DNA of 62,071 nucleotides, counting the filler, from an uncultured bacterium (lineage in GTDB: Bacteria; CAZSTA01), in NCBI GenBank assembly GCA_964609495.1. It is 6 parts of 6 records of this genome, joined end to end, with 100 filler letters (N's around TTAATTAATTAA, not from the genome) between each part and the next. Parts side by side here need not be neighbours in the genome. Positions count along the whole stretch, not along the records: positions 21,133 to 31,543 come from CAZSTA010000130.1; 5 more parts are not named here. The stretch is one strand, 5' to 3'. Of this stretch, positions 1,750 through 32,404 are shown one piece after another. Within the stretch, counting starts at the first letter, position 1; every line of letters starts with the position of its first letter. Made by a program: the position numbers and the translations under genes. Under the pieces are notes generated by a model. The model was not told the DNA's origin. It made no database searches and saw nothing but the letters and a program-made list of their open reading frames with translations.

Positions 1750-1846
1750 TGGCGGAAGTGTGTGGGAATCGAACCCACCACGGACTTACTTAGAGCCCGC
1801 TACTGGATTTGAAGTCCAGAAGGTCCACCAGGGCCTATCCACTTCC
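1750..1846 (-). tRNA. selC: tRNA-Sec (anticodon UCA)
   Basis: GGAAGTGG...CTGGA-CTTCAAA-TCCAG, long variable arm, GTGGG-TTCGATT-CCCAC T arm, ends GCCA. Lies 5 nt after the selB stop. Confidence 0.97.
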
Positions 1847-1851
1847 GCTAT

Positions 1852-3759
1852 CTATCTTAGAGTTCTTTTGTTACCAACCCTCCTTGTGAGAGAGAGTTCG
1901 TCGAAGTACTCCAACAAAGGTAGAGCATATTTGCGGCTAGTCTTCAATATATCCCTGAACTCTCCTAATGATATCTCCCCCTTAGAGGAGATCTCTTTTA
2001 AAAGAAGGTCCTTAGCCTCCTCTATAGCCTCTCGATGGAAAGATACTTCGGATGATACTTTGACCAAAATCTTCCTCTCGGACAATAATTGGACGATCTC
2101 CTCGATCTCCTCTTCTCCAAAGTTAAGCTCATCCTTTATATCCTCTATGCTAGGAGGGGAAAATTTATCAGTTAAAAATCTCCTCTCTATCTCCTTCTGA
2201 AGTTGCTCTTGAGCAGGAGAGAGACGGATCTTATGTTCTGAAAGCCTCACCAGATTCCCCTCCTCCTTTATCTTCCCCTCCTCTTCCATCTGCGATAATA
2301 TCCGTCCAAATATGCGAAGGTCTAGTGCTACCTTATTAGCCAACTCTGATTGGGATATCCCCACTTTAAGGGGGTTGATAGTATGAAATTGCGTCATTAT
2401 GTCTATTATCTTCCCCGCTATATCCTCATAAGTTTCATTCAATATAAATAAACGGGAGGTATCTTTGTCCAGAGCCTTTATTTTCCCCTTAACCATCAAC
2501 GTATCGAGAGCATCAGCTACTTCACCCTTAGTCAACCCACTTCGTTTAATTAACTCTTTCTCTGTCAGGGGATATCTCCTTGTTTCTCTAAGTATCTGTT
2601 CCAATAGTTGTTGAGGAGAACCACTCTCTTTAACAAGTAATCCCTTTATTATCTCCTGCTTAAACCTCTTATGCTTAGGGGGATTGCTCTCTAAGACCGT
2701 TCCCCCTCCTATAGTTCTCATCGGGGAATAACTGCGGATCACATATCTATCTCCCCTTTGGGTTACCAATTCCGCTTCCAAGCGAAATTGAACTAAAGCA
2801 GAATCGCCAGGTTTCAATTCCTCTTTATCTATGAGAGAAATCCTACCCATTATCTCGCTCGTCCCTAAGTGAACTCTGACCCTAGCTCTGTTGACGAGGG
2901 GTTTAGGGGCACTCGGAAGAAGTTCAAGCCTAGCGGTGAACATATAGGTTGGCTCTAGATAATCAGGGGTGGCAAGAACATCACCTCTTGTTACCTCCTC
3001 TTTAGCTATCCCTGCCAAGTTGATAGCAGTCCTCTGACCTTCAAAGGCCTCCTCTACATCTTTATTATGAGTTTGAATACCTCTAACCCTGGCTTTCTTC
3101 CCCTTCGGTAATATCTCGACTATATCACCGATCTTTACCAAACCCGATATCAGCGTTCCGGTAAGCACTGTTCCGAAACCCAGAACAGTGAAGACGCGAT
3201 CGATAGGAAGACGAAAGAATCCCTTGTTATCGCGTGGCTTCAACTTAAGAGCTACCTCATCGAGTTTCATTAGAAGCTCTGATATACCCTGCCCCGTCAC
3301 CGCTGATGTCTCTACGATCGGCGCATTCTCTAATCTGCTAGCTTTCAGTTCGTTGCGAATATCCTCCTTTATATATTCAAGCCATTCCTCATCTACTATA
3401 TCTATCTTCGATAGGGCTACCAATCCACTTCTTATCCTCAACAACTCTAAAATATCCAGATGCTCCCTGGTTTGAGGCATAAAACCCTCATCTGCCGCGA
3501 TGACTAACAGCGCTAGATCTATACCACTAGCTCCGGCCAACATATTTTTGATGAAGCGTTCATGCCCCGGAACATCTACTATACCTGCTCTCAAACCGCT
3601 GGGAAGGTCCAGATAGGCAAAACCTAAATCTATGGATATGCCTCTTTTCTTCTCCTCAGGTAACCTATCCGTATCAATCCCAGTTAGAGCAGAGATTAAC
3701 GCAGTCTTACCGTGATCGATATGCCCCGCAGTGCCTATTATTATATGTTTATCTTCCAT
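1852..3759 (-). CDS. selB: Selenocysteine-specific elongation factor SelB
   Basis: [20 protein letters not shown]-terminal winged helices with [13 protein letters not shown]. Confidence 0.98.
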
Positions 3760-3767
3760 CAGCTAAA

Positions 3768-4502
3768 TCAATATCTAAAATTCTCATGATAAGGCTCTTG
3801 CTTCTGAAAAAGCCTAACTAACGCTAAACCTACTACGAAACCCCCTATATGGGCAAACCAAGCTACTCCTCCGCCCTGCTCAACCGAAGCTGTTAAGGAA
3901 AGAATCCCACTGAAGAATTGGATGATTATCCAAAATCCCAATACATATAAAGCGGGTATCTCCACTAGACGAATGAAATATCCCAGGAAAAGCAAAGTTA
4001 GGACCCTAGCTCTAGGGAAGAGCAGGAGATAAGCTCCGAGAACACCAGCTATAGCTCCACTTGCCCCTATCGATGGGATCTGAGAATTAGGTCCGCTAAG
4101 GATATGAGCTAGGCTTGCCCCCACTCCACATATAAGATAGAAGATGACAAATCTAAATGGTCCCATTATATCCTCGATATTATTCCCAAATATCCAGAGA
4201 TAAAGCATATTACCAGCGATATGGACGAATCCAGCGTGCATAAACATCGAGGATAATATCGTAAGGTAGATGGGACTGGGTCCTGGCATATGGTATATTA
4301 TAGTTTGCCCATAGCGAACTGGATTGACAAGATCGACATTATGAACTATCTCATAGGGAGTAGTTCCCCAAGAGGCGATAAATAAGTTGAGTCTATCCCC
4401 TAAAGCAAGCTCATATAAGAAAACCAATACATTAATGGCTATGATCGCTATAGTAGCTACCGGGATATTTCGCGTGGGATTATTATCTTTCAAAGGAATC
4501 AT
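3768..4502 (-). CDS. Rhomboid intramembrane serine protease
   Basis: HxxxxHIAGNM, catalytic GASG, AHIGG. Confidence 0.95.
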   Translation of the reverse strand: MIPLKDNNPTRNIPVATIAIIAINVLVFLYELALGDRLNLFIASWGTTPYEIVHNVDLVNPVRYGQTIIYHMPGPSPIYLTILSSMFMHAGFVHIAGNMLYLWIFGNNIEDIMGPFRFVIFYLICGVGASLAHILSGPNSQIPSIGASGAIAGVLGAYLLLFPRARVLTLLFLGYFIRLVEIPALYVLGFWIIIQFFSGILSLTASVEQGGGVAWFAHIGGFVVGLALVRLFQKQEPYHENFRY

Positions 4503-5896
4503 AAGAATACCCCCAAAGCGGAGATTATCTCCTCAACTTCATCCTCAAAGACAGTTCGTAGGTCTAATAGCAATTTATCAGCGGAGATTCGGGCGAGAAT
4601 AGGAGGATCGTTAAATCTCAGTTTCATCTCTAACTCGTTCACCGAAGAATGTTTAGGGACGATGCCCACCAATTTAGTCGGTATGTCTGCCGTCGGGCAA
4701 CTCCCCCCTCCTATCCTAGAGCAACCATCGAGCATCTCTATATCCGCTCTATCTCCCACCTTCTCCTTTAGACGATCTATAAACCTAGAAAGTTTATTTG
4801 TGATATCGGGGAGAGATATAGATATCATATTCCATACGGGGATAGCCTCTATTCTCTTCTCCAAGTATAATCTAAGGGTAGCTTCTAAAGCAGCTATGGT
4901 CAACTTTCCCACTCGAAGGGCTCGGAGGAGATGATTTCGCTTCATCCTCTCGATATACTTCCTCTTACCAGCTATTAATCCGCACTGAGGACCACCCAGA
5001 AGTTTATCACCGCTACAGGTGATTATATCAGCTCCTGCTCTCACACTATCAGTAAGCAGAGGCTCCTCGCTTAAACCGTATCCCCTTAGATCTGATAAAG
5101 CTCCGCTACCTAAATCATACATAATTGGGATGGATCTTCTCTTTCCTAGCTCGACCAATTCATTTGGAGAAACGGAGGCGGTAAAACCTATGATATGAAA
5201 ATTGCTAGTATGAACTTTAAGTAATAAGGAGGTATTCTCCGATATAGCTTCCTCGTAATCCCTGAGGTAGGTCTTATTCGTGGTTCCCACCTCTACTAAT
5301 TCGGCAGAGCTCTTCTTCATAACCTCGGGGATACGGAACGAACCCCCGATCTCTATCAACTCTCCCCGAGATACTATTACCTCCCTCCCCTTAGCTATAG
5401 TATCCAAAGCCAGAAGCACTGCGGCGGCATTGTTATTAACTACTAAAACATCCTCAGCCCCGGTAAGTTTTACAAGTAACCTTTCAAGCGAAGCATATCT
5501 TGACCCACGCTGGCCCTGATTAAGATCGAACTCCAGATTAGTATAGCGACCTGCTGTTTTATCTAGCTCCTCGAGAGCTTCCTTGCTCAGAGGGGCTCTC
5601 CCTAGATTGGTATGCAATATCACCCCGGTAGCATTTATTAATCTCCTAAGAGATATTCTATCCTCTCTCTCCAACTCGTCTTCAATGAGATATAACATAT
5701 ATTCACAGGATAAATCGATCCTATCTAATTCACTCTCCTGACTTTCGAAGATACTCTGCCTGATCTTCCCTAATATCGAGCGCGTCGCCTCTACTAACTC
5801 TTGATGATCGCTAGAGGGGTTTCGCGATTTTAACCTGCCCACCAGCTCATTTACTGCTGGTAATCTTCTCAGGTAAATTTTTCTTTCCGATTTCAT
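4499..5896 (-). CDS. selA: L-seryl-tRNA(Sec) selenium transferase
   Basis: INATGVILHTNLGRAPL, GGSFRIP, SGDKLLGGPQ. Start at ATG 5896, overlapping the upstream stop (ATGA). Confidence 0.97.
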   Translation of the reverse strand: MKSERKIYLRRLPAVNELVGRLKSRNPSSDHQELVEATRSILGKIRQSIFESQESELDRIDLSCEYMLYLIEDELEREDRISLRRLINATGVILHTNLGRAPLSKEALEELDKTAGRYTNLEFDLNQGQRGSRYASLERLLVKLTGAEDVLVVNNNAAAVLLALDTIAKGREVIVSRGELIEIGGSFRIPEVMKKSSAELVEVGTTNKTYLRDYEEAISENTSLLLKVHTSNFHIIGFTASVSPNELVELGKRRSIPIMYDLGSGALSDLRGYGLSEEPLLTDSVRAGADIITCSGDKLLGGPQCGLIAGKRKYIERMKRNHLLRALRVGKLTIAALEATLRLYLEKRIEAIPVWNMISISLPDITNKLSRFIDRLKEKVGDRADIEMLDGCSRIGGGSCPTADIPTKLVGIVPKHSSVNELEMKLRFNDPPILARISADKLLLDLRTVFEDEVEEIISALGVFL

Positions 5897-6441
5897 ATCA
5901 AAAGGAGTATCAGAATTGTTATCGCTAAAGTTGGTAGAATAAAGCAACCAAACCTCTTCGCTATTCCCAAACCCTTGGGATTCCTTTTCCAAGAAGGGGA
6001 GGCTAATAACTTGTTGGCTTTCTTCATCTCATCTACTGCCTGACCGAACTTCTTCTGCTTTCGATATATTACTGCTAGGTTATTATGAGGAGTTGGATAA
6101 TTAGGCTCTAACTGGATCGCTTTGTTATAGCACTTTATAGCCTCCTCATAGTTCTCCTCCTCCTTGCATATATTACCCAAGTTATTGTAAGCTCTTGCGA
6201 ACTCAGGATCCATCTCTATTGCCTGCTCAAACTTTCTTCTCGCCTGATCGAACATCCCTTGCTCGGCATAGATAATGCCCAACTTATTATGACCCAGAGG
6301 AGATCCTGGATCCAGCTCGATCATTCTCCTGAATTGAGTTTCAGCTAATTCATATTCCTTTCGCCAGAGACACATCTCTCCTAATCTTAGTATCTCTAAT
6401 ATTTGCTTCTTTTGCTCATTTCTATCTTCTTCGTTGTTCAT
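5893..6441 (-). CDS. TPR repeat protein with C-terminal membrane anchor
   Basis: 3-4 TPRs (AYNNLG motifs) and a hydrophobic C-terminus. Confidence 0.85.
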   Translation of the reverse strand: MNNEEDRNEQKKQILEILRLGEMCLWRKEYELAETQFRRMIELDPGSPLGHNKLGIIYAEQGMFDQARRKFEQAIEMDPEFARAYNNLGNICKEEENYEEAIKCYNKAIQLEPNYPTPHNNLAVIYRKQKKFGQAVDEMKKANKLLASPSWKRNPKGLGIAKRFGCFILPTLAITILILLLI

Positions 6442-21646: not shown

Positions 21647-23464
21647 GTGATTCTCAGTTTGCTAGGGTGGGTGAAGATAGTTCACCTAAGGTCGTTATTT
21701 CTATTAAGGGGGCTGAGGAAATTGATCAATATATCGAAAGAATTTAAACAAGCTCGCTTTAGATCATTCTTTATCGTAGCGTTTTTATTCACCTTTATAG
21801 TCTTGGGGAGTGTTGTCACCTCTGCCCAAGATGTGTTGCAGGAAGCTTTAAAAACAGTTGAGGAAAATCCTGAGAGTCTAGAAGCCCGCCTTAACCTAGC
21901 CCAAGCCCTTCAAAGAGAGGATATGCTGGATGAGGCGATTCAACAGTATAATGATATACTTGCTCAAGATTTCAAGAATGTAGAGGCTCATTATCAGCGG
22001 GGCAGGATATATCTGGAGAAGGGCTTACTAGATGAGGCTGTCAGTGATTTTCAATGGGTTATAAGTGTGGATTATCGTCACTTGGATGCTCGCTATAATC
22101 TAGCTCAGATATATCAGCGTCAGGGGAAGCTAGAGGAGGCTATACTGGAGTATAGTATAATTAATACCCTAAACCCAGATCTAGTGACTGTGCACTTCAA
22201 TTTAGGTTACATCTATAACGAGAAGAATCTTCCCAAGGACGCTATCAGAGAATTTGAGCTAGCTAAGGAGTTGAATCCTGGGGATTGGTTCGTTCACCAT
22301 CTTTTAGGCGTAGCATATTCCGATCTGGGAGATTTCGACAATGCCATCAGAAATTTCACGAGAGCTAAGGAGATAGCCCCAGATAATAGAGATGTCCATT
22401 TCAATCTCGGAAATGCCTATATGGGAGCGGCTATTGCTATCGAGTGGCAAGCAATCGAGCAAGCTGGGGGAGAAGAGGAAATCCCCTTGGAAAGGAGCGA
22501 GGATGAGCGAAAGAAGGAGGAATTTCTCACCAAAGCTATAATAGAGTATAAGCAAACCCTTGCTCTTGACCCTAATAATGGAGTAGCGCATAATAATCTG
22601 GGGATTATATATCTCAAGCTGAATATACTGGAGGAGGCGATAAATGAGTTCCAGATAGCTGTACTTCAAGACCCTATGAACGTCGAGGCTCGTCTGAACT
22701 TGGGCAATATCTACTTCAGACAGGATCTATTGGAGAAAGCCTCGAAGGAGTATCAGCAGGTTTTAAAGTTCGCTCCAGATAACCCGGATGCTCATCGAGC
22801 CTTAGGATTGGTCTTCGTCCGTCAGGATAGAATAGATGAGGCTGAGGCTGAGTTCAGATATGTAGTAGAGGTGCTTGCTCCTCAGGATGAAGTTGCCCGT
22901 AAGCAACTAGGGTTAATTTATATGAGAGAGGGGAGATATGAAGAGGCTATCGCGCAATTCAGGTTCCTGCTTGCTATGATAGAGCAAGAGGTAATACCTG
23001 ATGATTTTGAGGTGCACTACAATTTAGCAGATGCCTACTATGCTCTGGGTTACTACGAAGATGCGGTAACTGAGTATCAGAAGGTTGTAGAGGCGAATCC
23101 AGACGATTTCTATGCCAATTTCAAATTGGGCAACTCTTACTACAACTTGAACGATTATGAGCTAGCTATATCTGCCTATCAAGAAGCTACAAGATTAGCC
23201 CCAGATAATATAGAGGCTCGCTATAATTTAGGGGGTGCTTATCTCCTCAATAACGAGTCGGATAGGGCAATAGACGAATTCAATTGGGTTATATGGCATA
23301 AACCGGATGATGCGGGGGCTTATTTTAACCTAGGGCAGGCTTATTATGAGAGCAACTTTATAGGTGAGGCTATAAGTGCTTGGGAGACGACTCTAGCGAT
23401 AGATCCTAATTATCCAGGAGCCAAGGAGAGACTAGATCGGGCTTTGAAGAGTGGAGGATATTGA
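21647..23464 (+). CDS. Long multi-TPR exported protein
   Basis: About 14 TPRs after a hydrophobic signal/anchor. Start uncertain. Confidence 0.9.
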   Translation: MILSLLGWVKIVHLRSLFLLRGLRKLINISKEFKQARFRSFFIVAFLFTFIVLGSVVTSAQDVLQEALKTVEENPESLEARLNLAQALQREDMLDEAIQQYNDILAQDFKNVEAHYQRGRIYLEKGLLDEAVSDFQWVISVDYRHLDARYNLAQIYQRQGKLEEAILEYSIINTLNPDLVTVHFNLGYIYNEKNLPKDAIREFELAKELNPGDWFVHHLLGVAYSDLGDFDNAIRNFTRAKEIAPDNRDVHFNLGNAYMGAAIAIEWQAIEQAGGEEEIPLERSEDERKKEEFLTKAIIEYKQTLALDPNNGVAHNNLGIIYLKLNILEEAINEFQIAVLQDPMNVEARLNLGNIYFRQDLLEKASKEYQQVLKFAPDNPDAHRALGLVFVRQDRIDEAEAEFRYVVEVLAPQDEVARKQLGLIYMREGRYEEAIAQFRFLLAMIEQEVIPDDFEVHYNLADAYYALGYYEDAVTEYQKVVEANPDDFYANFKLGNSYYNLNDYELAISAYQEATRLAPDNIEARYNLGGAYLLNNESDRAIDEFNWVIWHKPDDAGAYFNLGQAYYESNFIGEAISAWETTLAIDPNYPGAKERLDRALKSGGY

Positions 23465-23552: not shown

Positions 23553-24443
23553 ATGTCCACTAATATAAAGAGAAGACCAAGGAGGAAAAGAAGGCTGCCA
23601 GATTGGTTAGATGGGGCTATTATAGTTTTAGCCATTCTCCTGGTAGCCGCAGCCTATCTGACTTTTCCCATTATATTTCCTGGTTTGACTAGAGGAGGAG
23701 GAGAGGAGGAGGAAAAAAGACCGGTAGTTTTAGAGGAGGGCGAGGCTAGACCCCAGGTTCCTCGGGAAGAGGAGAAAATATCTCCTCCAAAGATAGCTTC
23801 TACTGCACAGGAAAGGAAGACGGTTGAGGAGGAAGTTCAACCTCAAGAGGGGGCTGAGGAAGTAGCTGAAGTTCCGAAGACCGAGGAGAAGGTGGAGGAA
23901 GAAGCAACTAAGCCAGAAGAGGAGGAGGTCAAAGTAGCTACTGTGGCAGAGAAAGTTCCCTCTCAACCGAAGGAGGAGGTTGTTTCTTCCCCTGAGAAGG
24001 TCGAATATTATGAGATAAGAACTGGATCTTTCCTTAACAAAGATAACGCGGACAGACAAGCCGCTTCTTTAAAAGCGAAAGGATATCAGGTTCAGGTCTA
24101 TAAGTCTGGTGAGTACTATGTCCCTATAGTAACGCTTAAGAGCGAGGAAGAAGTTGAGGCTTTAGGGCGAGAACTCTCCTCTGGAGTAGTGGTTGCTGCC
24201 CCTAAGAAGGAGATAAGCTCTTCTCCAACTTATGGGATTCAAGTAGGGGCTTTCTCAGTTGAGAGCAATGCTAGTAACTTTGAGAGAGAATTAAAATCTA
24301 AGGGATACGATACTTATATTGAGGTGAAAAGTGCTCCTAAGAAGATATACCGAGTTGGAGTTAAGGCTTCTAGCAAGACCGAAGCCTTGAAGTTCGCAGA
24401 GAAGCTGAAGGAGCAAGGATATGATGTTCTTGTTCCTAGGTAG
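23553..24443 (+). CDS. SPOR-domain membrane protein (FtsN-like architecture)
   Basis: Basic N-terminus, TM, E/K-rich linker, two SPOR domains (TGSF..NA, IQVGAF..NA). Confidence 0.85.
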   Translation: MSTNIKRRPRRKRRLPDWLDGAIIVLAILLVAAAYLTFPIIFPGLTRGGGEEEEKRPVVLEEGEARPQVPREEEKISPPKIASTAQERKTVEEEVQPQEGAEEVAEVPKTEEKVEEEATKPEEEEVKVATVAEKVPSQPKEEVVSSPEKVEYYEIRTGSFLNKDNADRQAASLKAKGYQVQVYKSGEYYVPIVTLKSEEEVEALGRELSSGVVVAAPKKEISSSPTYGIQVGAFSVESNASNFERELKSKGYDTYIEVKSAPKKIYRVGVKASSKTEALKFAEKLKEQGYDVLVPR

Positions 24444-24576
24444 ATTATATAGTTCTAGTTATCAATAAATATCATTCTTTTCGAGCGGTTAGCCTCCTCT
24501 AGGTCGAATTCTGGGTGCTCACCTCTTTGGAAGGAGGTGAGTTTTTACATATCTGAGGATAGGAGGGGATGAGCTT

Positions 24577-25878
24577 ATGGCTACGAAAAGGAAGCGGAGA
24601 AGACCTCCAGATTGGCTCGATTTCGCAGTAGTATTATTTATTATCCTGATTATTGCGGGTATTTATTGGATTATCCCTTCGGTGTTTCCTGGATTAGGAG
24701 TGAAGAAGATGGCGATCGAGGGAAGCACCAAGACCGATAAGGGGGAGGAGATAATCGCCGCTAAAATAGTATTATATGATGAAAAGGGGAATATTATCGG
24801 TACTAAACAGAGCGATGAAGAGGGGGAATTTAAATTTGAGGATGTTGAAGCCGGTTTATATTCGCTCCAAGCAGAGAAAGATGGATATAAAGGGGAAGAG
24901 ATAATCAAGGTGGAGGATAGAGATATAAGGGGATTGATTTTAGCTCTAGTTCCACCTGTGGAGAGAGTTGTTACCACTAATTTTGGCGAACTATCGATCA
25001 GCTCGACCCCTGCCGAGGCTGTGGTGTATCTCGATGGTGAGAAAGAAGCTCGGGGGATAACGCCTCTAACTATAGGGGATTTGGAGCAAGGTGAGTATAA
25101 GATAAAACTTGTATTGGAGGGTTATCAGGCTTGGGAGGGACTCGCTCAGGTGAGGGCAGGGGAGGCCACTCCTCTCAAAGCTGAGTTGAGTGCTATACCA
25201 GTTGTGAAGCCAAAGACAGCTATCCTTGCGGTTACTTCTGAGCCAACAGGGGCCTTGGTTCGGGTAGATAGATTTTTGATAGGTAGGACTCCCGTTCAGC
25301 GCATAATAAATAGGGTGGGAGAAAGAGAGTTGATTTTAAATAAAGATGGATATGAGAGTTGGAGGAAGAAGGTAGAGTTTTTAGCTGGAGGAAAGGTTGC
25401 CGAATTTGTAAAATTAGAAGAGGTTTCTGAGAAGGGGGCAGAAGAGGTCTATAGAGTTCAGACTGGCTCCTTCACTTATGAAGACAACGCGAAGAGGCAG
25501 GCGGCGAGGTTTGAGAGGAGAGGATATAAAGCCGAGATATATAAATCGGGCAAATATTATGTGGTAATAGTAACTTTAACCAATAGAGAGGAAGCGGAGG
25601 CTCTGAAAAAGGAAGTTGGAGGGGTCAATATTAGCAGGAGTAGTGTCAAATCTTCTCTTCCTTATAGGGTGCAAATAGGAGCTTTCAAGGTTAAGGATAA
25701 TGCCGTCGGTCGTAGGAATGAACTTATTGCGATGGGATATAAGGCGGCGATAGAGCAACGAAAGGAGAATCTCCTATATCGAGTTGTTATTAGAACTTTG
25801 AGTAGGGAGGAGGCGGTTAAATTATCCGATGAAATCAGAGAAGGGGGTTTTGCAACTTTTACCTCTCTCAATCGTTAG
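24577..25878 (+). CDS. Membrane protein with Ig-like, 2 PEGA and 2 SPOR domains
   Basis: TM, G.F.FEDV.AG.Y beta-sandwich, PEGA motifs, VQTGSF and VQIGAF SPOR motifs. Confidence 0.82.
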   Translation: MATKRKRRRPPDWLDFAVVLFIILIIAGIYWIIPSVFPGLGVKKMAIEGSTKTDKGEEIIAAKIVLYDEKGNIIGTKQSDEEGEFKFEDVEAGLYSLQAEKDGYKGEEIIKVEDRDIRGLILALVPPVERVVTTNFGELSISSTPAEAVVYLDGEKEARGITPLTIGDLEQGEYKIKLVLEGYQAWEGLAQVRAGEATPLKAELSAIPVVKPKTAILAVTSEPTGALVRVDRFLIGRTPVQRIINRVGERELILNKDGYESWRKKVEFLAGGKVAEFVKLEEVSEKGAEEVYRVQTGSFTYEDNAKRQAARFERRGYKAEIYKSGKYYVVIVTLTNREEAEALKKEVGGVNISRSSVKSSLPYRVQIGAFKVKDNAVGRRNELIAMGYKAAIEQRKENLLYRVVIRTLSREEAVKLSDEIREGGFATFTSLNR

Positions 25879-26131: not shown

Positions 26132-28702
26132 ATGTTTGGAGATAGTGATATAAAGTTACCTCTCGTTATCTCTCTTATCATTCATTCTTTGTTGCTTATC
26201 GTATTTTCTTATATTGTATTTACCCCTGTAGAGGAGGAGGAATTAATAAGTATAAATCTTGTAGAGCTGATAGATACCTCTATTCCTCAACTTGAGGAGT
26301 CTACTCTCGTCGCCACTCAACCAGAGAAGCCCGAGGCCGAGGAAATTCCCGAGAGTTCTACTTCAGAGGAGAGGATATCTGCTATCCCTGAGGTGGTAAC
26401 TGAAAAGGAAGTAACAGAGGCCAAAGTCTCGAGTGAGAAAGTAGAACCCTTAAGTGAAATAGGAGGGGTAGAGGGGAGGATTCCTCCCCCTATAGAAACG
26501 AATATCGTTCCCGAAGAGGGGGAGATAGCTCAAGCTCAGGTCAAGCCCGAGGTGAGTGTGAAAGAGGGATCTACCTTCCCTGCTGCTAAAGTGCCGACAG
26601 TTATTAAAGAGGAGCTCAAGGAAAAGTCCGCCCTTGAGCTATCTAGGGAGGAAGTAGCTGCTCCTCAGCCTTCTCTACCCTCTGTTGCAGTGAAGAGTGC
26701 TTCTCAAGGCGGGGGGGAGGAACTGGCTCCTAAGAAAGGAGAGACTATCACCGAGAGCATAGTTAGAGTCATCACTAAGAAGCTCTCGGAGATAGGTATT
26801 GCTCCCACTGTTAGCGAGAAAAAGTTATCCTCCGATGAAACTTCTGTGGCAAAGCTTGAGACCCCCCTTGAGGTGGGAGCAAGGGAGGTATCATCTGAGA
26901 TTAGGGAGAGTTCCGCTTCTGAAGAGGTCGAAAAGGGATTGGGAGTAAAGGGGGAAGAAGTTTCTCCTGTAGTTACCTCTCAGGAGGTTGATAAGAGGGA
27001 GAGTGCTGTTGTCCCAAGTGGTGCTAAAACTCCCAATGTTATCATCTCTAAGGAGGAAGTGCCTGTAGTATCTCTTCCTAAGGCGAAGGACGAGAAAGGG
27101 CTGTCGGAACGAGGAGAGGTTTTGAAAAAGCCTCAAAAAGAGGCGGAGAAGATAGAGAGCTCGGAGGGTTCAAAGGTGGATGTTATCGGTTCGGCGATCC
27201 CTGAGGAAAAGGTTTCTGAGGAAAGAAGGGTACCCGAAAAGGTAGGGGGACCTGCGGTGATTAAGGGGGAGATAGGGGGCAAGGGAACTGAGGAAGCCAG
27301 TGATGTCTCGGAAGATATAGTGCTTGAGAAGCCTCAGAAGGTTAAGGAGGTAGGGAAGGAGGAGATATCAGCCCCTCAGAAGATTGAGACTGAGATAGGT
27401 GAGCCACTTGTTTCTGGGAGGAAACAAATCGAGGAGAAGATAATCCAGCCCAAAGCTTCCCCGGTACTTAGGGAGATCGAGGAAGCCCAGGAGAGAAAGA
27501 CAGAAGAGGTCGAGGCTCTTAAGAGAGGGGAGGATATTGAAAAACCTCAAGGCAACGAGGTTGTTCCCTCAGAGGAAGAGGAGAGATATGGTAAAGAGGA
27601 GGTGAGTGAACTCGAGGTTGTAAAGGTGATTAGTGGTCCTGAGGAACTGCCTAAGAAGGAGGTTCTGTCTGAACTCGATATTACTCCTCAAGTTAAGGAT
27701 GAAGGGGGAGAAGTTCAGAAGGAGACTAAGGGGGAGGCAGAGGAGGAGAGAATTGCCACTGTCCATAAAAAACCTCGAGAGGAGGAAGTAGTCGAGCAAA
27801 AGATTTCCTCGAAGATGGAGGAAGTGGAACCACCCTCGCGAAGAGAGGTTACTGAGCCGACTGTTTCTAAGGAGATCCCTAATGATCAATGGATGACAAA
27901 AGGGATGATCATTAAGCAGGGGAAAGACGAGAGGCAAGGAGTAATAGTCGTCTCTCAAAAGGAGGCTCCTACTATGAAGATATCTTCCTCCATTGAAGAA
28001 GCAGGAGATGTGAAATCAGGTGGTAAAACCGCTCCTATAATAGAGGAGAGCTCTCGAAGAACTGAGAAGTTTGAGGATAGTGGCGAGATTATCCCGAAGG
28101 AGGAGATAGCTAAAGCTAGTCAGATATTATCTGTCATAGAAGAGGGACAGAAGGAGATAGTGGCGATACCTATCTCCGAGAGGAAAGCCACTAAAGAGCC
28201 TATTCAAGAGAGGATCGATCTAAAAGCATCGGAGAAGAAGGAACAGATCTCAGCGCCAGAGAAGGGGGCTCCTATAATCGAAGAGCGGAGGGAAACCCTG
28301 ATTGTCCCTGAAAAGTCGGAGCCAGAGAAGAAGGAAGCTATGGAGATGGGTGAGACCCCTCGAAAAGGAAAGTTGGAGGAGATTGTCTCTTCTAAGGAGA
28401 GGCCTAAGATCACGATAGAATTGGGTAAGCCTAAGGTCAAATCCGATTTCTATCCTGCTTTCGTGCGTCCAGTGGCGATCGAGTATCCTCAATGGGCTCA
28501 GGAGGAGGGAATTGAGGGAGCAATGGAATTGACTGTTTTGGTGGGGAGCGATGGAAAGGTGATGGAAGTCAATATTAGTAGGACTTCGGGACATAAAAAG
28601 CTCGATCTTGTAGCAGTGGAGGCTTTACAACAGGCTCAATTTACCTCCTATGAAACGCAATATATAGTTAAGATACTGATAAAATTCACTTTAGGAGGTT
28701 AG
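26132..28702 (+). CDS. TonB-family protein with a very long E/K/P/S-rich linker
   Basis: TM with SxxxH (ISLIIH). C-terminal YP..A...GIEG....V...G.V....SG...LD..A TonB_C domain. Confidence 0.82.
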   Translation: MFGDSDIKLPLVISLIIHSLLLIVFSYIVFTPVEEEELISINLVELIDTSIPQLEESTLVATQPEKPEAEEIPESSTSEERISAIPEVVTEKEVTEAKVSSEKVEPLSEIGGVEGRIPPPIETNIVPEEGEIAQAQVKPEVSVKEGSTFPAAKVPTVIKEELKEKSALELSREEVAAPQPSLPSVAVKSASQGGGEELAPKKGETITESIVRVITKKLSEIGIAPTVSEKKLSSDETSVAKLETPLEVGAREVSSEIRESSASEEVEKGLGVKGEEVSPVVTSQEVDKRESAVVPSGAKTPNVIISKEEVPVVSLPKAKDEKGLSERGEVLKKPQKEAEKIESSEGSKVDVIGSAIPEEKVSEERRVPEKVGGPAVIKGEIGGKGTEEASDVSEDIVLEKPQKVKEVGKEEISAPQKIETEIGEPLVSGRKQIEEKIIQPKASPVLREIEEAQERKTEEVEALKRGEDIEKPQGNEVVPSEEEERYGKEEVSELEVVKVISGPEELPKKEVLSELDITPQVKDEGGEVQKETKGEAEEERIATVHKKPREEEVVEQKISSKMEEVEPPSRREVTEPTVSKEIPNDQWMTKGMIIKQGKDERQGVIVVSQKEAPTMKISSSIEEAGDVKSGGKTAPIIEESSRRTEKFEDSGEIIPKEEIAKASQILSVIEEGQKEIVAIPISERKATKEPIQERIDLKASEKKEQISAPEKGAPIIEERRETLIVPEKSEPEKKEAMEMGETPRKGKLEEIVSSKERPKITIELGKPKVKSDFYPAFVRPVAIEYPQWAQEEGIEGAMELTVLVGSDGKVMEVNISRTSGHKKLDLVAVEALQQAQFTSYETQYIVKILIKFTLGG

Positions 28703-28706
28703 GTCA

Positions 28707-29627
28707 ATGCTCGCTAGATTAAGTATAATCCTTTCAATATCTTTAATTTTCTTGACTAGTAACTTAGGTTGGGCGGAAGAGCCGTCGCTCACTATCCTCT
28801 ATACTAACGATGTCAGCGGATATTTAGCCCCCTGTGGGTGAAGAATTCCTCTAGGAGGGGTGGCTCGGCGAGCCACGAAGATCAATTCTATAAGGGCGGT
28901 TGAATCCGATGTTCTCGTCCTAGAGGTCGGGAATTCCATCTCTGGAGCGAGGCTAGCGAATCAGTTCAAAGGAAAGCCCAATATAGAGGCGATGAATCTT
29001 ATGGGCTATTCTGCGATGGCTATAGGGGAGAACGAGTTAATATTTCTAGGGATAGACAATTTAAAGGAAAGGGCTAAGGAGGCTAAATTCCCCTTTCTCT
29101 CAGCGAATATAGTGGAAGCAAAGACGGGGAGGACTATCTTCACTCCCTTTATAATAAAGGAAATTGGAGATGAGAGGATAGCGATTATCGGAATTACCTC
29201 TGCTTCCATGCCCCAAACGGAACAGGACAGATTAGGGATATCTCTGTTAGACCCGATAGACACAGCTAAGGGATATGCTGATATGTTGAGGAAGGATGTC
29301 GATTTGATAATTGTTCTCTCTAACTTGGGATACAGTATCGATCAACAGCTTGCTCAACAGGTGGAGTCCATAGATGTTATCATAGGAGCGAATAATAGAA
29401 GCACTGAAGCCAAACCAGTGAAGATCAATGAATCGATCATTGCTCAAGGTTATGTGCAAGGTAGGTATCTCGGATATCTTCGCTTAAAGCTGGCTGGAAA
29501 GGCACATGTCACATCTTACGAGGGAGAATTGATAAAGTTAGATCCTGATATTGCTGATGATAAGGAAGCCAGCAAATTGGTGGAAAGATATGAGGAACTT
29601 TATGATAAGGAGATTGGTAATCGTTAA
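28707..29627 (+). CDS. Secreted UshA/5'-nucleotidase-fold selenoprotein, Sec at codon 45 (TGA 28839-28841)
   Basis: ATG 28707 with AGGAGG RBS, signal peptide, ILYTNDVSGYLAPCG-TGA-RIPLGGVARRAT in frame with ORF 28860-29627. SECIS-like hairpin follows; selABC are present on another contig of this window. Confidence 0.88.
28860..28876 (+). promoter_or_regulatory. Candidate bacterial SECIS hairpin
   Basis: GTGGCTC-GGC-GAGCCAC begins 18 nt after the UGA and has a G-containing apical loop. Confidence 0.6.
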
Positions 29628-29872
29628 TTCGAAAAACAGAAAATAGTAGTTAGCCAGTGGTGATACCTGATTACTAATAAGGAGATGGGAGATCGATAGG
29701 GATCTTAGTGTGAATTGGTTATAAGCAGAAAATCTAAAATGTTCCTTGAATCATAAAATATTTATGATTTACAAAGGGTTAAAATTATGAACAGTCGATC
29801 TTGGAAGGGCGGATATTGAAGACAAAGTTCAGATCAGCTCAACGAAGATCGGAAACTCAAAGGAGGTTTTAC

Positions 29873-30175
29873 ATGTTTGAGGATAAGGTTTTACAGTGTA
29901 GGGATTGCGGAAAGGACTTTGTCTTCACTGCCGGAGAGCAGGAGTTCTATGCCAAGAAGGGATTCAGTGACCCAGCTCGATGTCGAGACTGCCGCATAGC
30001 TAGAAAGAAAGCAAGAGGCGATTATGATAGGCCTCGGCAGATGTACGAGGTTATATGCGACGATTGCGGGAAAAAGACTATGGTTCCTTTCAAACCTCGG
30101 GGCGATAGGCCAGTATATTGCAAAGAATGCTTTGAGGCTAGAAGAAATAGAGATTCTAGAAGGTCTGATTTCTAG
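29873..30175 (+). CDS. Zinc-ribbon protein with CxxC-x17-CxxC domain
   Basis: MFEDKVLQCRDCGKDFVFTAGEQEFY..., C..CGK..VPFKP...PVYC.EC. AGGAGG RBS. Confidence 0.92.
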   Translation: MFEDKVLQCRDCGKDFVFTAGEQEFYAKKGFSDPARCRDCRIARKKARGDYDRPRQMYEVICDDCGKKTMVPFKPRGDRPVYCKECFEARRNRDSRRSDF

Positions 30176-30196
30176 AGGAACAAGATGCTAATTTAT

Positions 30197-30228
30197 AAGT
30201 CCGAAGGGTATTCTCTTCGGGCTTTTTT
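30197..30228 (+). terminator. Rho-independent terminator
   Basis: AAGTCCGAAGGG...CTCTTCGGGCTT followed by a T tract. Confidence 0.8.
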
Positions 30229-30309
30229 ATGAAATCTTGAGTTTGAGCCTCAGCACTTCCGAATATCTTACTGAATTTCGCTGGTTAGGTATTTAGAGAG
30301 GGAGAAGAT

Positions 30310-31266
30310 ATGAAAAGATCCGAATTAGGAAATACAGGATTGGAAGTCACAGAGTTATGCTTTGGAACACTGATCTTTGGTAAGTTACAAGCGAATATAT
30401 CTCCTGAAGAAGGAGCTAGGGCGATTCGGAGAGCGAGAGAATTGGGGATCAACTTCTTCGACACAGCTCAGATATATGGGACCTATCCCCATCTTAGAGA
30501 GGGTTTAAAAGGAGATAAAGATGATTTAGTTATCGCCTCCAAATCCAGAGTGAAAAGTTATGAGGAGATGAAAGATGCGGTGGAGGAGGCTTTGCTTGCT
30601 ATGGAGTTAGAGCATATCGATATCTTCCATCTTCATCTTGTGAAATCTGACGAGGATTTACGGCAACGTGAGGATGCTTTAGAATGTTTACAGGATTACA
30701 AGGAGAGGGGAATAATCAGCGCAATCGGTATATCTGCTCATTCACCCAAAGGAGTAAAAGCTGTATTGGATAGGGATGAGATCGAGGTTGTCTTCCCAGT
30801 TATCAACAAGAAGGGGATTGGGATCATAGATGGCACTTTCCAAGAGATGCTGTCAGTGATTAAGGCGGCGAAGGAGAGGGGAAAAGCTTTATACGCGATG
30901 AAGCCTTTGGGAGGAGGACATCTGATTAATGACATCAAATCTTCTATAGACTATGTGAGGGGATTAGGGATATTTGATTCTATCTCCGTAGGAATGAAGA
31001 CTCCTGAAGAGGTGGAGATGGATGTCGGAATATTCGAGGGAGATGAGAACTATATAAAACAGGCTGAGAAATTAGGAATAATTAAGAGGACTCTCAAGAG
31101 ATTGGTGATTTATGACACTTGTATTGCCTGCGGAACTTGTGAGGAGAATTGTGATCAGGGAGCTATCAAGGTGGTTGATAATAAGGCAAGAGTGGATAGA
31201 GATAAGTGCATCCTATGTGGATACTGTGCGAGTAGTTGTCCAGTATTCTGCATAAGGGTGGTTTAG
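30310..31266 (+). CDS. Aldo/keto reductase with C-terminal 2x[4Fe-4S] domain
   Basis: FDTAQIYG, MKPLGGG, two CxxCxxCxxxC motifs. Confidence 0.92.
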   Translation: MKRSELGNTGLEVTELCFGTLIFGKLQANISPEEGARAIRRARELGINFFDTAQIYGTYPHLREGLKGDKDDLVIASKSRVKSYEEMKDAVEEALLAMELEHIDIFHLHLVKSDEDLRQREDALECLQDYKERGIISAIGISAHSPKGVKAVLDRDEIEVVFPVINKKGIGIIDGTFQEMLSVIKAAKERGKALYAMKPLGGGHLINDIKSSIDYVRGLGIFDSISVGMKTPEEVEMDVGIFEGDENYIKQAEKLGIIKRTLKRLVIYDTCIACGTCEENCDQGAIKVVDNKARVDRDKCILCGYCASSCPVFCIRVV

Positions 31267-31543: not shown

Positions 31544-31643
31544 NNNNNNNNNNNNNNNNNNNNNNNNNNNNNNNNNNNNNNNNNNNNTTAATTAATTAAN
31601 NNNNNNNNNNNNNNNNNNNNNNNNNNNNNNNNNNNNNNNNNNN
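31544..31643. other. Artificial contig linker
   Basis: N-run with TTAATTAATTAA. Confidence 0.99.
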
Positions 31644-32404
31644 CGATATTTCGTTCCCGCAACTAAAGAAGCGAGATCTAAGCTCAGCACCCTTCTGTTT
31701 CTAAGAAGCTCTGGCACCTCCATATTGACGATTCGTTGAGCCAAGCCCTCAACGATAGCGGTCTTTCCTACCCCGGGTTCACCGATCAGACAGGGATTGT
31801 TCTTTGTTCGTCGGCTCAACACTTGCATCACTCGCTGGATCTCATTATGCCTACCTATCACCGGATCCAACTTATCCTCCCTAGAGAGCTGGGTTAGATC
31901 GCGACCAAATTCATCCAGATATGGGGTGCGACTAGCTTGCTTAGTTTTCCTAGAGAAGGAGGCGCTATTGCTATCTCCCAGAAGCCGAACAGTATGTTCT
32001 CGCACCTTATCCAAAGTTACTCCTAGTCTGCTAAGAGATTGGGACGCTATCCCTTCCCCTTCCCGCACTAATCCCAACAAAATGTGCTCGGTGCCAACAT
32101 AGTTATGACCTAGAGTGCGAGCTTCATCGAAGGATAGGTCCAGAACTCTCTTAGCCTGCTCTGTAAAGGAGATCTCCCCTGGCCAAGAATTTCCCCTCCT
32201 GATAGAACTCTCCACCTGCTTCCTAACTTTATCCAGATTTGCTCCTAGACTCTCTAATACTCTTACTGCTACTCCATTACCTTCTTTGATCAGCCCTAAC
32301 AATAGATGTTCCGTACCTACATAATTATGGTTTAATCGTCGCGCTTCCTCTTGAGCTAGAACGATGACCTTTCGGGCTCTTTGGGTATATCGACTAAAAG
32401 ACAT
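31644..32404 (-). CDS. clpC: ATP-dependent Clp protease ATPase ClpC, N-terminal part
   Basis: Two Clp-N repeats (HNYVGTEH), [15 protein letters not shown]. Confidence 0.92.

Follow-up and report, generated by a model that had tools for sequence, protein, structure and literature searches.

At the locus examined here, within a window of 62,071 nucleotides (the whole stretch of DNA analyzed, joined from parts of one uncultured bacterial genome), a table-11 ORF list contains only a GTG-started ORF of 255 amino acids (28860-29627). Direct reading of the sequence reveals a longer gene (Table 1): an ATG at 28707 opens a frame of 306 codons that is closed by a TAA (29625-29627) and interrupted by a single in-frame TGA (28839-28841), with a Shine-Dalgarno element positioned 8 nt 5' of the ATG, i.e., within the last codons of an upstream TonB-like gene. 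An ATG with its own ribosome-binding site upstream of the listed start at 28860, and a 306-aa frame continuing through the TGA, had been proposed in the first-pass annotation; the AGGAGG at 28693-28698 and a recoded translation running to the TAA confirm the two. With the TGA taken as U45, the translated frame reads ...ILYTNDVSGYLAPCGU..., so that residues 41-45 (A-P-C-G-U) carry a P-C-G-U motif; the entire protein holds one Cys (C43) and one His (H267). Its N-terminus has the make-up of a predicted signal peptide (R4, a hydrophobic core, G-W-A, and then EE), and the N-termini of homologues are likewise hydrophobic. What looks like a truncated gene is one encoding a predicted secreted selenocysteine protein on a dead nucleotidase scaffold.

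Table 1. Features of the selenoprotein locus and of the selenocysteine machinery, in window coordinates
Feature	Position	Strand	Basis and remarks
tRNA-Sec (selC), anticodon TCA	1750..1846	-	ARAGORN; Rfam RF01852, 76.8 bits
selB, Sec-specific elongation factor	1852..3759	-	TIGR00475, 428.9 bits vs cutoff 242
selA, Sec synthase	4499..5992	-	TIGR00474, 580.3 bits vs cutoff 268
TonB-like gene, 856 aa	26132..28702	+	TM anchor, ~740-aa acidic low-complexity spacer, TonB_C domain
Shine-Dalgarno AGGAGG	28693..28698	+	read directly
Selenoprotein CDS, 306 codons, TGA = Sec	28707..29627	+	sequence, NF041198 best match, CD73 homology, AF2
Predicted Sec-type signal peptide, residues 1-23	28707..28775	+	inferred from sequence
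TGT-GGG-TGA codons = Cys43-Gly44-Sec45	28833..28841	+	sequence; conserved in clade
Small 5-bp hairpin from Pro and Gly-Gly codons	28847..28859	+	folding; 79% of cells paired, 12 sequences
SECIS-like hairpin, 7-bp stem GTGGCTC/GAGCCAC, loop GGC	28860..28876	+	folding, covariation

The stop codon of the TonB-like gene (28700-28702) leaves a gap of 4 nt before the ATG, and no terminator-like site was found between the two coding sequences, which are probably co-transcribed. The early observation that the gene sits 4 nt after a TonB gene thus stands for this genome, but the adjacency is not conserved, being absent at all 15 of the related Sec loci described below.

Genes for selenocysteine incorporation lie in the same window: selA, selB, and selC, which the first-pass annotation had placed in this assembly, were all three found with ARAGORN, Rfam, and TIGR profiles, while no selD was seen in the window. 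As a taxonomic marker, GroEL is most similar, at 74-75% identity, to proteins whose names point to several different phyla. Genome-wide reassignment of TGA was considered and rejected: TGA is the ordinary stop for 12 of the 46 large ORFs of the window, and a scan for long TGA-interrupted frames listed ten, the selenoprotein CDS among them, of which the other nine, judged by coordinates and piece lengths alone, do not resemble TGA-split genes. Among 80 related genomic loci from a search with a four-sequence alignment as query, 15 carry an in-frame TGA at the equivalent codon; these Sec loci are 35-47% identical to the window protein over the best tblastn segment, and across the related loci the block L-T-[IV]-L-[HYF]-T-N-D...P-C-G immediately 5' of the TGA is conserved. 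Alignment of homologues had been suggested at the outset as the way to see whether a Cys stands opposite the UGA; those with intact N-termini do have one (in CGC, CDC, CAC, and CSC motifs), and the sequence upstream is conserved as well. Among the 36 clade rows that cover the site, Cys or Sec is retained at position 43 in 34 and at position 45 in 35. On the sequence evidence, a reading of the TGA at 28839-28841 as selenocysteine is supported.

The first-pass annotation had also pointed to a 7-bp hairpin with a GG-containing loop following the TGA, and both folding and compensatory changes bear this out. The stem begins 18 nt after the TGA, with 25 nt from the TGA to the first loop base, a geometry that fits what we take to be the spacing and loop-G criteria for a bacterial SECIS. 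This hairpin (28860-28876) is the minimum-energy fold of positions 28839-28880 (-16.1 kcal/mol, z = -2.07, with 9 of 200 shuffles as good), although the stability of a 71-nt fold around the TGA is unremarkable (z = -0.85). In an alignment of 12 sequences, 96.4% of the cells of the 7-bp stem are paired and two-sided changes occur at two pairs: columns 27/33, each a third codon position where the change is synonymous, are CG in seven sequences and UA in five, and columns 22/38 go from CG (six) to GC (four). All seven pairs are present at 8 of the 10 Sec loci in the same register, compared with 1 of 62 non-Sec loci. The A-R-R-A peptide alone does predispose to the hairpin, with 4-7 of 7 pairs formed in nine non-Sec loci; of these nine loci with the same peptide, one reaches 7/7. 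The small hairpin at 28847-28859 could possibly, on weak evidence, be the lower part of the SECIS. At the Rfam gathering threshold, tRNA-Sec was the sole match, with no SECIS family reported. The SECIS-like element lies within a conserved G-G-[VL]-A-R-R-A-[TS] peptide, and RNA pairing here shapes synonymous sites as well as amino-acid choice (V...T versus L...S).

These data bear on a rival account of the locus, namely that the TGA genuinely ends translation or is erroneous, in which case the product would be either a peptide of 44 residues or the GTG-started ORF of 255 aa (28860-29627), with the upstream frame being fortuitous or a pseudogene remnant. Standard ORF calling indeed yields only 28860-29627, and among 326 aligned domain rows the database has 48 gene calls similarly cut short at the N-terminus. 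Yet a GTG start would (i) deprive the protein of its signal peptide and of strand β1, part of a fold modelled with confidence (see below), and (ii) coincide with the codon that opens the conserved hairpin; moreover, (iii) the 44 upstream codons have a ribosome-binding site, and their conservation runs on through the TGA at 15 loci of 35-47% identity, and (iv) Sec machinery lies ~23 kb away in the coordinates of the window, itself a set of joined parts. We therefore consider termination or error at this codon very improbable.

The read-through protein was modelled with AlphaFold2 at high confidence (pLDDT 93.8, pTM 0.90), with a detached helix at residues 3-18 (pLDDT 64-66), a domain that starts at residue 27, and a linker helix (286-304) at the end. 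Foldseek matched this model to CD73 and the Thermus 5'-nucleotidase with TM-scores of 0.80-0.82 when normalized to the query and 0.46-0.51 when normalized to the target, and phmmer against the PDB returned the CD73 N-domain (E 1.9e-31). Judged from the model, the protein comprises just two elements of a 5'-nucleotidase, its N-terminal metallophosphatase domain and its linker helix; the UshA fold assigned at first pass therefore holds for these two elements but not for a whole UshA/CD73 enzyme, for want of a C-terminal domain. A Pfam scan of the read-through protein at an E-value limit of 0.01 gave no match, neither to PF00149 (Metallophos) nor to PF02872 nor to any other family.

The near-total loss of His/Asp ligands claimed in the first-pass annotation was upheld by alignment and extends across the whole CxC/CxU clade. 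Opposite the DVH, GD, GNH[ED], SH, and GGH motifs of CD73 and canonical homologues, the window protein has DVS, GN, GENE, SN, and GANN; i.e., the canonical residues D, H, D, N, H, H, and H correspond to D35, S37, N76, E108, N109, N206, and N229, with six of the seven replaced. With the dimetal site thus dismantled, the protein should not be a phosphoesterase. For it to be a phosphoesterase or nucleotidase still, albeit with an unusual ligand set, would accord with the clear relationship to 5'-nucleotidases in both sequence and fold and with the retention of D35 and E110, but it would have to work with six of seven canonical residues replaced (including Asn in place of the catalytic His of GNH), no Pfam Metallophos match, and no C-terminal substrate-binding domain, and from within a clade split from the N-H enzymes by one well-supported branch. 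Retained enzymatic activity of this kind is extremely improbable.

This split emerged from a comparison of 326 aligned domains from 270 proteins, in which none of the 46 CxC domains keeps the N-H of GNHE and none of the 198 N-H domains has CxC. On the tree, the N-H domains (35 sampled) make up one side of a branch with an SH-aLRT of 99, the same result being obtained with the trait columns dropped. At least four switches between Sec and Cys are required on this tree, with the motif itself kept. By phylum, 13 of the 15 Sec loci are from Chloroflexota.

Relatives of the window protein are fused to redox modules. Four CxxCH motifs are present in a C-terminal module of 7 of 43 CxC proteins; among 18 CxC proteins scanned with Pfam, seven have Cytochrome_C554, and AhpC/TSA-redoxin, DsbA-like, or Thioredoxin_4 domains are found in four at or above the Pfam cutoff and in four more below it. 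As the fused thioredoxin-fold domains are reductase-like in some relatives (AhpC/TSA-redoxin) and oxidase-like in others (DsbA), electron flow in either direction would be possible. Gene context offers no functional lead, since no gene partner recurs among 53 neighbouring ORFs chosen from the 86 listed around the 15 Sec loci; the repeats seen there are methyltransferases near two loci, and patatin plus B12-radical-SAM genes at two closely related CPxU loci. In the window itself, no CxxCH-bearing ORF or c-type cytochrome gene is present, and scans of 52 window ORFs, by Pfam (7 at E 0.01 and 38 at E 1e-15) or NCBIfam (10 at E 1e-5, three of these shared with the first Pfam set), revealed neither a thioredoxin-fold nor a cytochrome domain; both results count against the redox reading set out next.

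The family probably has an extracytoplasmic redox function, and we regard it as reasonably likely that the gene at 28707-29627 specifies an exported selenoprotein that is not a phosphoesterase but a Cys43-Sec45 redox protein. In the scheme that we infer for its export, its selenenylsulfide cycle, and its redox partners, SelB and tRNA-Sec would decode the UGA at 28839-28841 as selenocysteine, guided by the hairpin embedded in the G-G-V-A-R-R-A-T codons. The mature protein would comprise residues ~24-306, with C43 and U45 as the reactive centre, in the loop following the former D-x-H ligand motif. This pair would alternate between a selenol/thiol form and a Cys43-Sec45 selenenylsulfide, and the protein would thus serve as an extracytoplasmic oxidoreductase, exchanging electrons with periplasmic thiol-disulfide proteins or c-type cytochromes.

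The first-pass annotation had left "redox-active" and "metal-binding" side by side; comparison of relatives, via their domain fusions, would favour the former. In the metal-binding alternative, the Cys-x-Sec pair and the surviving carboxylates (D35, E108, E110) would constitute a new soft-metal or metalloid site, making the protein a periplasmic metal/metalloid binding or sensing protein, or a remodelled metalloenzyme, as opposed to a disulfide-type redox protein. D35 is kept, all 77 clade rows have an acidic residue at position 110, and 43 of the 77 have D or E at position 108; together with His206, kept in 35 of 46 CxC domains, these acidic positions make a remodelled metal site possible for the clade. 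The motif also occupies the loop just after the former D-x-H ligands, and one Sec locus (L007) adjoins genes for ArsP-type and SBF-type permeases while another (L001) adjoins a TauE sulfite exporter gene. Each of these neighbourhood hints occurs once, however, and within the Sec subgroup the ligands other than C/U vary (N/D/S at 76, H/N/R/Y at 206, and H/R/G/N at 229). The single His of the window protein is far from the site in sequence, and fusion to thioredoxin folds is more typical of thiol-disulfide relays. A metal or metalloid site is accordingly a rather unlikely function for this protein.

It could also be argued that the protein is a noncatalytic envelope scaffold or binding protein, in which Cys-x-Sec only tethers a partner, such as the TonB-like protein, or stabilizes the loop. 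In the phmmer alignment, C43 falls opposite a CD73 Cys in the same loop, with a second CD73 Cys six residues on, the two presumably forming a structural disulfide. The closely spaced TonB-like gene, with no intervening terminator-like site, would supply a candidate to be tethered, and a catalytic partner is not encoded nearby. Sec is costly, though, and lies almost always in catalytic redox sites; its repeated interchange with Cys while the motif persists is likewise at odds with a purely structural role, as are the electron-transfer modules to which relatives are fused. The missing TonB adjacency at the related Sec loci argues in the same direction, most of those loci being from Chloroflexota, a phylum not known to have TonB systems. 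We hold a scaffold role to be improbable.

Returning to the redox reading, a broader version can be envisaged, in which the CxC/CxU branch represents an unrecognized and widespread class of extracytoplasmic reductases. Here, the dimetal pocket would have been turned into a Cys/Sec site that draws its electrons from tetraheme cytochromes or TlpA-type thioredoxins, and its substrate would be a small compound, either phosphate-like or a chalcogen species. This version is speculative, and we think it unlikely as it stands. Were it true, (i) the partners would be fused in some lineages and separate for the window protein, (ii) candidate substrates would include arsenate, selenite, thiosulfate, and polysulfide, and (iii) the window protein would be a minimal Sec-boosted catalytic module.

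Ultimately, the locus illustrates how a selenoprotein can be missed by standard ORF calling, as is the case for the N-truncated database entries of the same type. Because the stand-alone form scores under both of the pertinent NCBIfam cutoffs (detailed below), cutoff-based annotation would probably pass it off as a nucleotidase that has been truncated. The mutual exclusivity of the CxC/CxU and phosphatase motifs, the one supported branch between them, and the repeated fusions to tetraheme and thioredoxin-fold modules give rise to a testable hypothesis, namely that a dead phosphatase scaffold has taken on a new role in the periplasm, as a Cys/Sec redox module.

Several known systems invite comparison. 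The second-best NCBIfam match of the window protein is SoxB (TIGR04486; 117.8 bits versus a cutoff of 550), which is also second for 17 of 22 relatives scanned and, at E 1e-25 or better, unlisted for the other five; in pairwise comparison with SoxB structures it scores a low 43 bits. This thiosulfohydrolase belongs to the same superfamily as the window protein, acts on cysteine-bound sulfur species in the periplasm, and retains its dimanganese site. UshA, CD73, and the Thermus 5'-nucleotidase have an N-domain and a linker helix folded like those of the window protein, and an extracytoplasmic location is typical of such 5'-nucleotidases; unlike them, the window protein is without the C-terminal substrate-binding domain, has its metal-binding and catalytic residues replaced, and has a Cys-x-Sec pair in the loop after β1.

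Closer relationships are found among annotated selenoproteins. NF049981 (UshA-like (seleno)protein family 2) is a single-domain family of similar length (a 262-position profile, of which the window match spans 1-261), but the window protein reaches only 58.2 of the 140 bits set as the cutoff, and the motif of that family, according to the available part of PMC13188914, is CxxU as opposed to the CxU of the window protein. The best NCBIfam match is NF041198 (UshA_like_PCGU; E 8.5e-64, 216 bits, below the 275-bit cutoff), an equivalog for an UshA-like (seleno)protein with a 519-position profile. The N-terminal UshA-like domain and P-C-G-U/C motif are common to both, yet the window protein covers profile positions 9-268 alone. 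Positions 398-519 constitute a tetraheme c554-like module, identified as such since the last 145 residues of one relative (P0021) alone match that part, whereas the window protein ends at the linker helix, without CxxCH; the proteins that pass the cutoff, P0021 (366 bits) and P0257 (294 bits), carry four CxxCH motifs. An UshA-like (COG0737) CxU family is listed as a predicted bacterial selenoprotein in the 2008 GOS survey (PMC2398784) and in two reviews (PMC9312934, PMC13188914), as far as the available portions of these sources extend, and these listings, with NF041198, substantiate the earlier remark that such proteins are known as predicted selenoproteins. The same portions of the survey lists give no function, architecture, ligand loss, or fusions for the family, which has thus stood on selenoprotein lists since at least 2008 with no function assigned in them. 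Literature searches on such selenoproteins brought up family listings of this kind and nothing further. With that family the window protein has in common its COG0737 homology, a UGA in a C-x-U motif, a SECIS-like stem-loop, and the accompanying Sec machinery, and it is a domain-only variant of this already listed UshA-like selenoprotein family.

Translated with TGA as Sec, the frame proposed by the first-pass annotation, an RBS-preceded ATG opening 306 codons immediately after a giant TonB gene (856 aa), is present as described (see table), and its product begins MLARLSIILSISLIFLTSNLGWAEEPSLTILYTNDVSGYLAPCGU. Table-11 ORF calling reports only a GTG-started, 255-aa ORF for this gene (28860-29627), matching the ORF-track start of that annotation. 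The selA, selB and selC genes that it had placed in the assembly all lie inside the window, in a compact minus-strand cluster (1750-5992) ordered tRNA-Sec, selB, a 244-aa membrane protein and selA; the membrane protein weakly resembles a rhombosortase, at 29 bits against a cutoff of 84, and no selD was seen within the window. No terminator-like site separates the TonB-like and selenoprotein genes, the first on the plus strand being at 30197-30224, past the zinc-ribbon gene; promoter-like matches were in no excess over shuffles (8 found versus 5.5 ± 2.2 expected).

Features of the selenoprotein locus and residues of protein relatives opposite its Sec motif
Feature	Position or source	Strand	Remark
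tRNA-Sec	1750-1846	-	in window
selB	1852-3759	-	in window
selA	4499-5992	-	in window
TonB-like ORF	26132-28702	+	TAG at 28700-28702
Shine-Dalgarno AGGAGG	28693-28698	+	read in sequence; within last codons of TonB-like gene
Selenoprotein CDS	28707-29627	+	ATG 28707, TAA 29625-29627; 306 residues with TGA = Sec
Sec codon TGA (U45)	28839-28841	+	in-frame
5-bp hairpin	28847-28859	+	fold of 28839-28880
7-bp hairpin GTGGCTC-GGC-GAGCCAC	28860-28876	+	fold of 28839-28880
Covarying peptide G-G-[VL]-A-R-R-A-[TS]	window 28854-28877; related loci L001-L013, Sec codon ~3046-3067
124-aa treble-clef CxxC-x17-CxxC zinc-ribbon protein, then aldo-keto reductase	29801-31266	+	downstream of selenoprotein gene
270-aa ORF, two Clp_N repeats, start only of an AAA domain	31592-32404	-	adjoins convergent aldo-keto reductase gene
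CGC	P0005, P0021		opposite C43-G44-U45
CDC	P0006, P0010		opposite C43-G44-U45
CAC	P0015, P0016		opposite C43-G44-U45
CSC	P0050		opposite C43-G44-U45

A reassigned code was ruled out: TGA is the ordinary stop of 12 of the 46 large ORFs of the window, and among ten long TGA-interrupted frames listed in the window scan, the nine besides the selenoprotein frame did not resemble a TGA-split gene, as judged on coordinates and piece lengths alone. Recoding at this codon is therefore site-specific. Protein searches and alignment placed Cys opposite U45 in homologues with intact N-termini, the outcome that the first-pass annotation had looked for, while many homologues of ~250-260 aa start just past the equivalent position, as is characteristic of gene predictions cut short by a TGA. 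Turning to DNA, we scanned genome contigs, kept 80 loci from 289 confirmed, and read each matched frame upstream. An in-frame TGA occupies the aligned codon in 15 of these (the Sec loci), reading P-C-G-U in 12 (L001-L008, L011, L013, L038 and L041, all Anaerolineae or other Chloroflexota), S-G-U in L009, with a Cys four residues further on, and C-P-x-U in L012 and L015; the remaining 65 have a canonical D-x-H motif and no TGA. Though identity to the window protein, taken over the best tblastn segment, is just 35-47% in the Sec loci, the block L-T-[IVL]-L-[HYF]-T-N-[DN] upstream of the TGA is kept in 15/15, the conservation whose absence would have spoken against the earlier proposal. That the TGA is a true stop, a sequencing error or the mark of a pseudogene, as the truncated ORF call might suggest, is thus very improbable. 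The two deltaproteobacterial-type relatives with C-P-x-U (L012:3070-4296 and L015:3064-4290) have their own SECIS hairpin with a GGUCUG loop, an additional helical insertion of ~120 residues, and a B12-binding radical SAM gene after each.

The predicted 7-bp hairpin with a GG-containing loop also follows the TGA, its G-G-C loop lying 25 nt from the UGA, an arrangement which we take to be compatible with bacterial SECIS rules. Folding of 28839-28880 gave -16.1 kcal/mol (z = -2.07; 9/200 shuffles equally stable); the stability of a 71-nt piece around the TGA was not unusual (z = -0.85). When the window was aligned with 11 loci of the same register, the 7-bp helix was paired in 96.4% of cells, compared with 35-58% in slid registers, and was independently recovered by RNAalifold; none of 500 shuffles did as well in paired fraction or in covariation score. 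Two-sided changes occur at columns 27/33 (C-G in seven sequences, U-A in five), both synonymous as third positions of an Ala and an Arg codon, and at columns 22/38 (C-G in six, G-C in four). The latter couple Val with Thr, or Leu with Ser, within the covarying peptide, because base 1 of the Val/Leu codon pairs with base 2 of the Thr/Ser codon in the stem; to judge from these alignments, amino-acid choice in this peptide is dictated by RNA structure in Sec-type homologues. As a control, the same 17 nt were scored in 76 loci whose alignment starts at most four residues off (L013, L018, L029 and L049 dropped). All seven pairs formed in 8 of 10 same-register Sec loci (the other two having 6 and 5), in 1 of 62 non-Sec loci (mean 4.1), and in 1 of the 9 non-Sec loci with an A-R-R-A peptide (range 4-7). 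The peptide therefore favours the hairpin, yet full pairing is specific to Sec genes. The remaining four Sec loci (L012, L015, L038 and L041) have hairpins in other registers.

Pfam returned no family match for the window protein; phmmer against PDB sequences aligned its residues 13-290 with CD73 and bacterial 5'-nucleotidases (E 1.9e-31). Its AlphaFold2 model (pLDDT 93.8, pTM 0.90; 77-sequence alignment) comprises a detached N-terminal helix (3-18, pLDDT 64-66), an alpha/beta sandwich, and a long last helix (286-304). Export would be expected, as the N-terminus resembles a signal peptide and members of the family typically lie outside the cytoplasm. Foldseek matched the N-domain and interdomain helix of CD73, Thermus 5'-NT and UshA, with TM-scores of 0.80-0.82 query-normalised and just 0.46-0.51 target-normalised; the UshA fold named in the first-pass annotation thus holds for these parts, but unlike those enzymes the window protein lacks the C-terminal nucleotide-binding domain. 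The claimed loss of nearly all His/Asp ligands was evident in alignments: only D35 is kept among the residues compared, with S37 for His, N76 for Asp, E108-N109 for Asn-His, and N206 and N229 each for His. Besides Sec45, the protein contains a single Cys (C43) and a single His (H267). Residual phosphoesterase activity, for which the fold and D35 might speak, is the least probable of the readings weighed here.

An exhaustive profile search yielded 15,653 relatives at E ≤1e-3 (279 at E ≤1e-30), and 270 proteins, returned as best hits to the window protein by this and the initial protein search, were aligned to it, giving 326 domain rows. C-x-C at positions 43/45 occurs in 46 domains, none of which keeps the N-H of the phosphatase motif G-N-H-E, and in none of the 198 domains that keep N-H, five of which have Cys at position 43 or 45 but not at both. 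A further 48 rows are N-truncated non-N-H calls, which are probably Sec genes, and 34 are other or partial. Conserved in the CxC/CxU clade are C43, C/U45, P48, G50-G51, A-R-R-A, D73, G75, Y101, G107, an acidic residue at 110, and N134; former ligand positions drift. In a maximum-likelihood tree of 96 domains ("quick" search, unrooted, six long branches), the 35 N-H domains, randomly sampled from the 270 best matches, all fall on one side of a branch (SH-aLRT 99), a grouping that persists with 22 columns around the trait positions removed. The Sec/Cys label requires six changes, at least four forced by supported branches, and the window protein lies near a Chloroflexota group without resolved placement.

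Extracytoplasmic redox modules recur as fusion partners of the CxC relatives. Four CxxCH motifs lie C-terminal to the domain in 7 of 43 CxC proteins; among 18 scanned, seven contain Pfam Cytochrome_C554 and four a thioredoxin-fold domain at or above the Pfam cutoff, with four more below it. The four at or above it are AhpC/TSA-redoxin with a CEPC motif (P0006, P0161), DsbA/Thioredoxin_4 (P0123) and Thioredoxin_4 (P0261). Two CxC UshA-like domains, a DsbA-like region and a C-terminal tetraheme module are combined in P0123, P0131 and P0135 (~1,190-1,210 aa), which look like multi-centre extracytoplasmic redox proteins; their domain types are E-H-C-x-C-G-D-E-E and N-N-C-x-C. Alongside the recoding signals, fold, ligand loss, Cys/Sec conservation and fusions documented here, we propose that the window protein is first exported, and that Cys43 and Sec45, its sole redox-capable residues, would cycle between selenol/thiol and selenenylsulfide. 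Placed in the beta1-alpha1 loop, which bears the D-x-H ligands in active enzymes, they may exchange electrons with periplasmic thiol-disulfide proteins or cytochromes, which here would be encoded elsewhere. Against so simple a redox picture point the retention in many clade members of His206 and acidic residues at 108 and 110, alongside which a remodelled soft-metal site is conceivable, if unlikely given the fusions. Also against it are the presence of both reductase-like and oxidase-like types among the fused thioredoxin folds, the lack of a CxxCH-bearing ORF in the window, and the lack of a recurrent gene among the 53 neighbouring ORFs scanned at the 15 Sec loci; a non-catalytic envelope protein, its Cys-Sec pair serving tethering or structure, is more doubtful still, the same fusions favouring redox exchange.

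The upstream TonB-like protein comprises an N-terminal membrane helix, an acidic, low-complexity spacer of ~740 residues rich in E/K/S/V/P, and a TonB_C domain (783-843); ordinary TonB proteins have a far shorter spacer. Envelope proteins with PEGA, SPOR and DUF4384 domains (8775-10322, minus; 23553-25878, plus) and a 605-aa TPR protein (21647-23464) lie around the locus and suggest a cell-envelope gene neighbourhood. The aldo-keto reductase, after the terminator-like hairpin, is fused to a 2x[4Fe-4S] ferredoxin domain, and the Clp_N ORF, far shorter than ClpA/B/C, may have arisen through gene decay or at an assembly junction. GroEL did not place the host in one phylum, its best matches (74-75% identical) carrying the names of several phyla, including NC10/Methylomirabilales, Nitrospinota, Tectomicrobia and Latescibacterota.

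The basic finding is not new, since the family is already listed: as the first-pass annotation stated, UshA-like proteins are known predicted selenoproteins. In the sections of the GOS selenoproteome study dealing with it (PMC2398784), the UshA-like (COG0737) CxU family has a table entry of 76, 20 and 92 (values quoted without column headings) and, unlike most, falls outside those described with conserved Cys-based redox motifs; NF041198 with CxU and NF049981 with CxxU appear in the lists of two reviews (PMC13188914, PMC9312934), and no functional study emerged among the records and extracts returned by our literature search. The window adds mutual exclusivity of CxC/CxU and the phosphatase motif across the clade, fusions as evidence for redox partners, a SECIS inside a conserved peptide with which it co-evolves, and a domain-only architecture missed by both curated models. 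The window protein scores 216 bits on its top NCBIfam match, NF041198 ("UshA_like_PCGU, UshA-like (seleno)protein"; cutoff 275), over profile positions 9-268 of 519, and 58 bits on NF049981 ("family 2"; cutoff 140). All 14 Sec-locus translations tested likewise fall below the NF041198 cutoff (131-239 bits), and 12 of the 15 Sec loci have 250-271 residues after U; these 12 and the window protein therefore represent a stand-alone, domain-only form. The NF041198 cutoff is passed by P0021 (366 bits) and P0257 (294 bits), and a search with just the final 145 residues of P0021 hits profile positions 398-519. The curated family is thus the cytochrome fusion itself, complete with a tetraheme module, whereas the window protein consists of the domain only.
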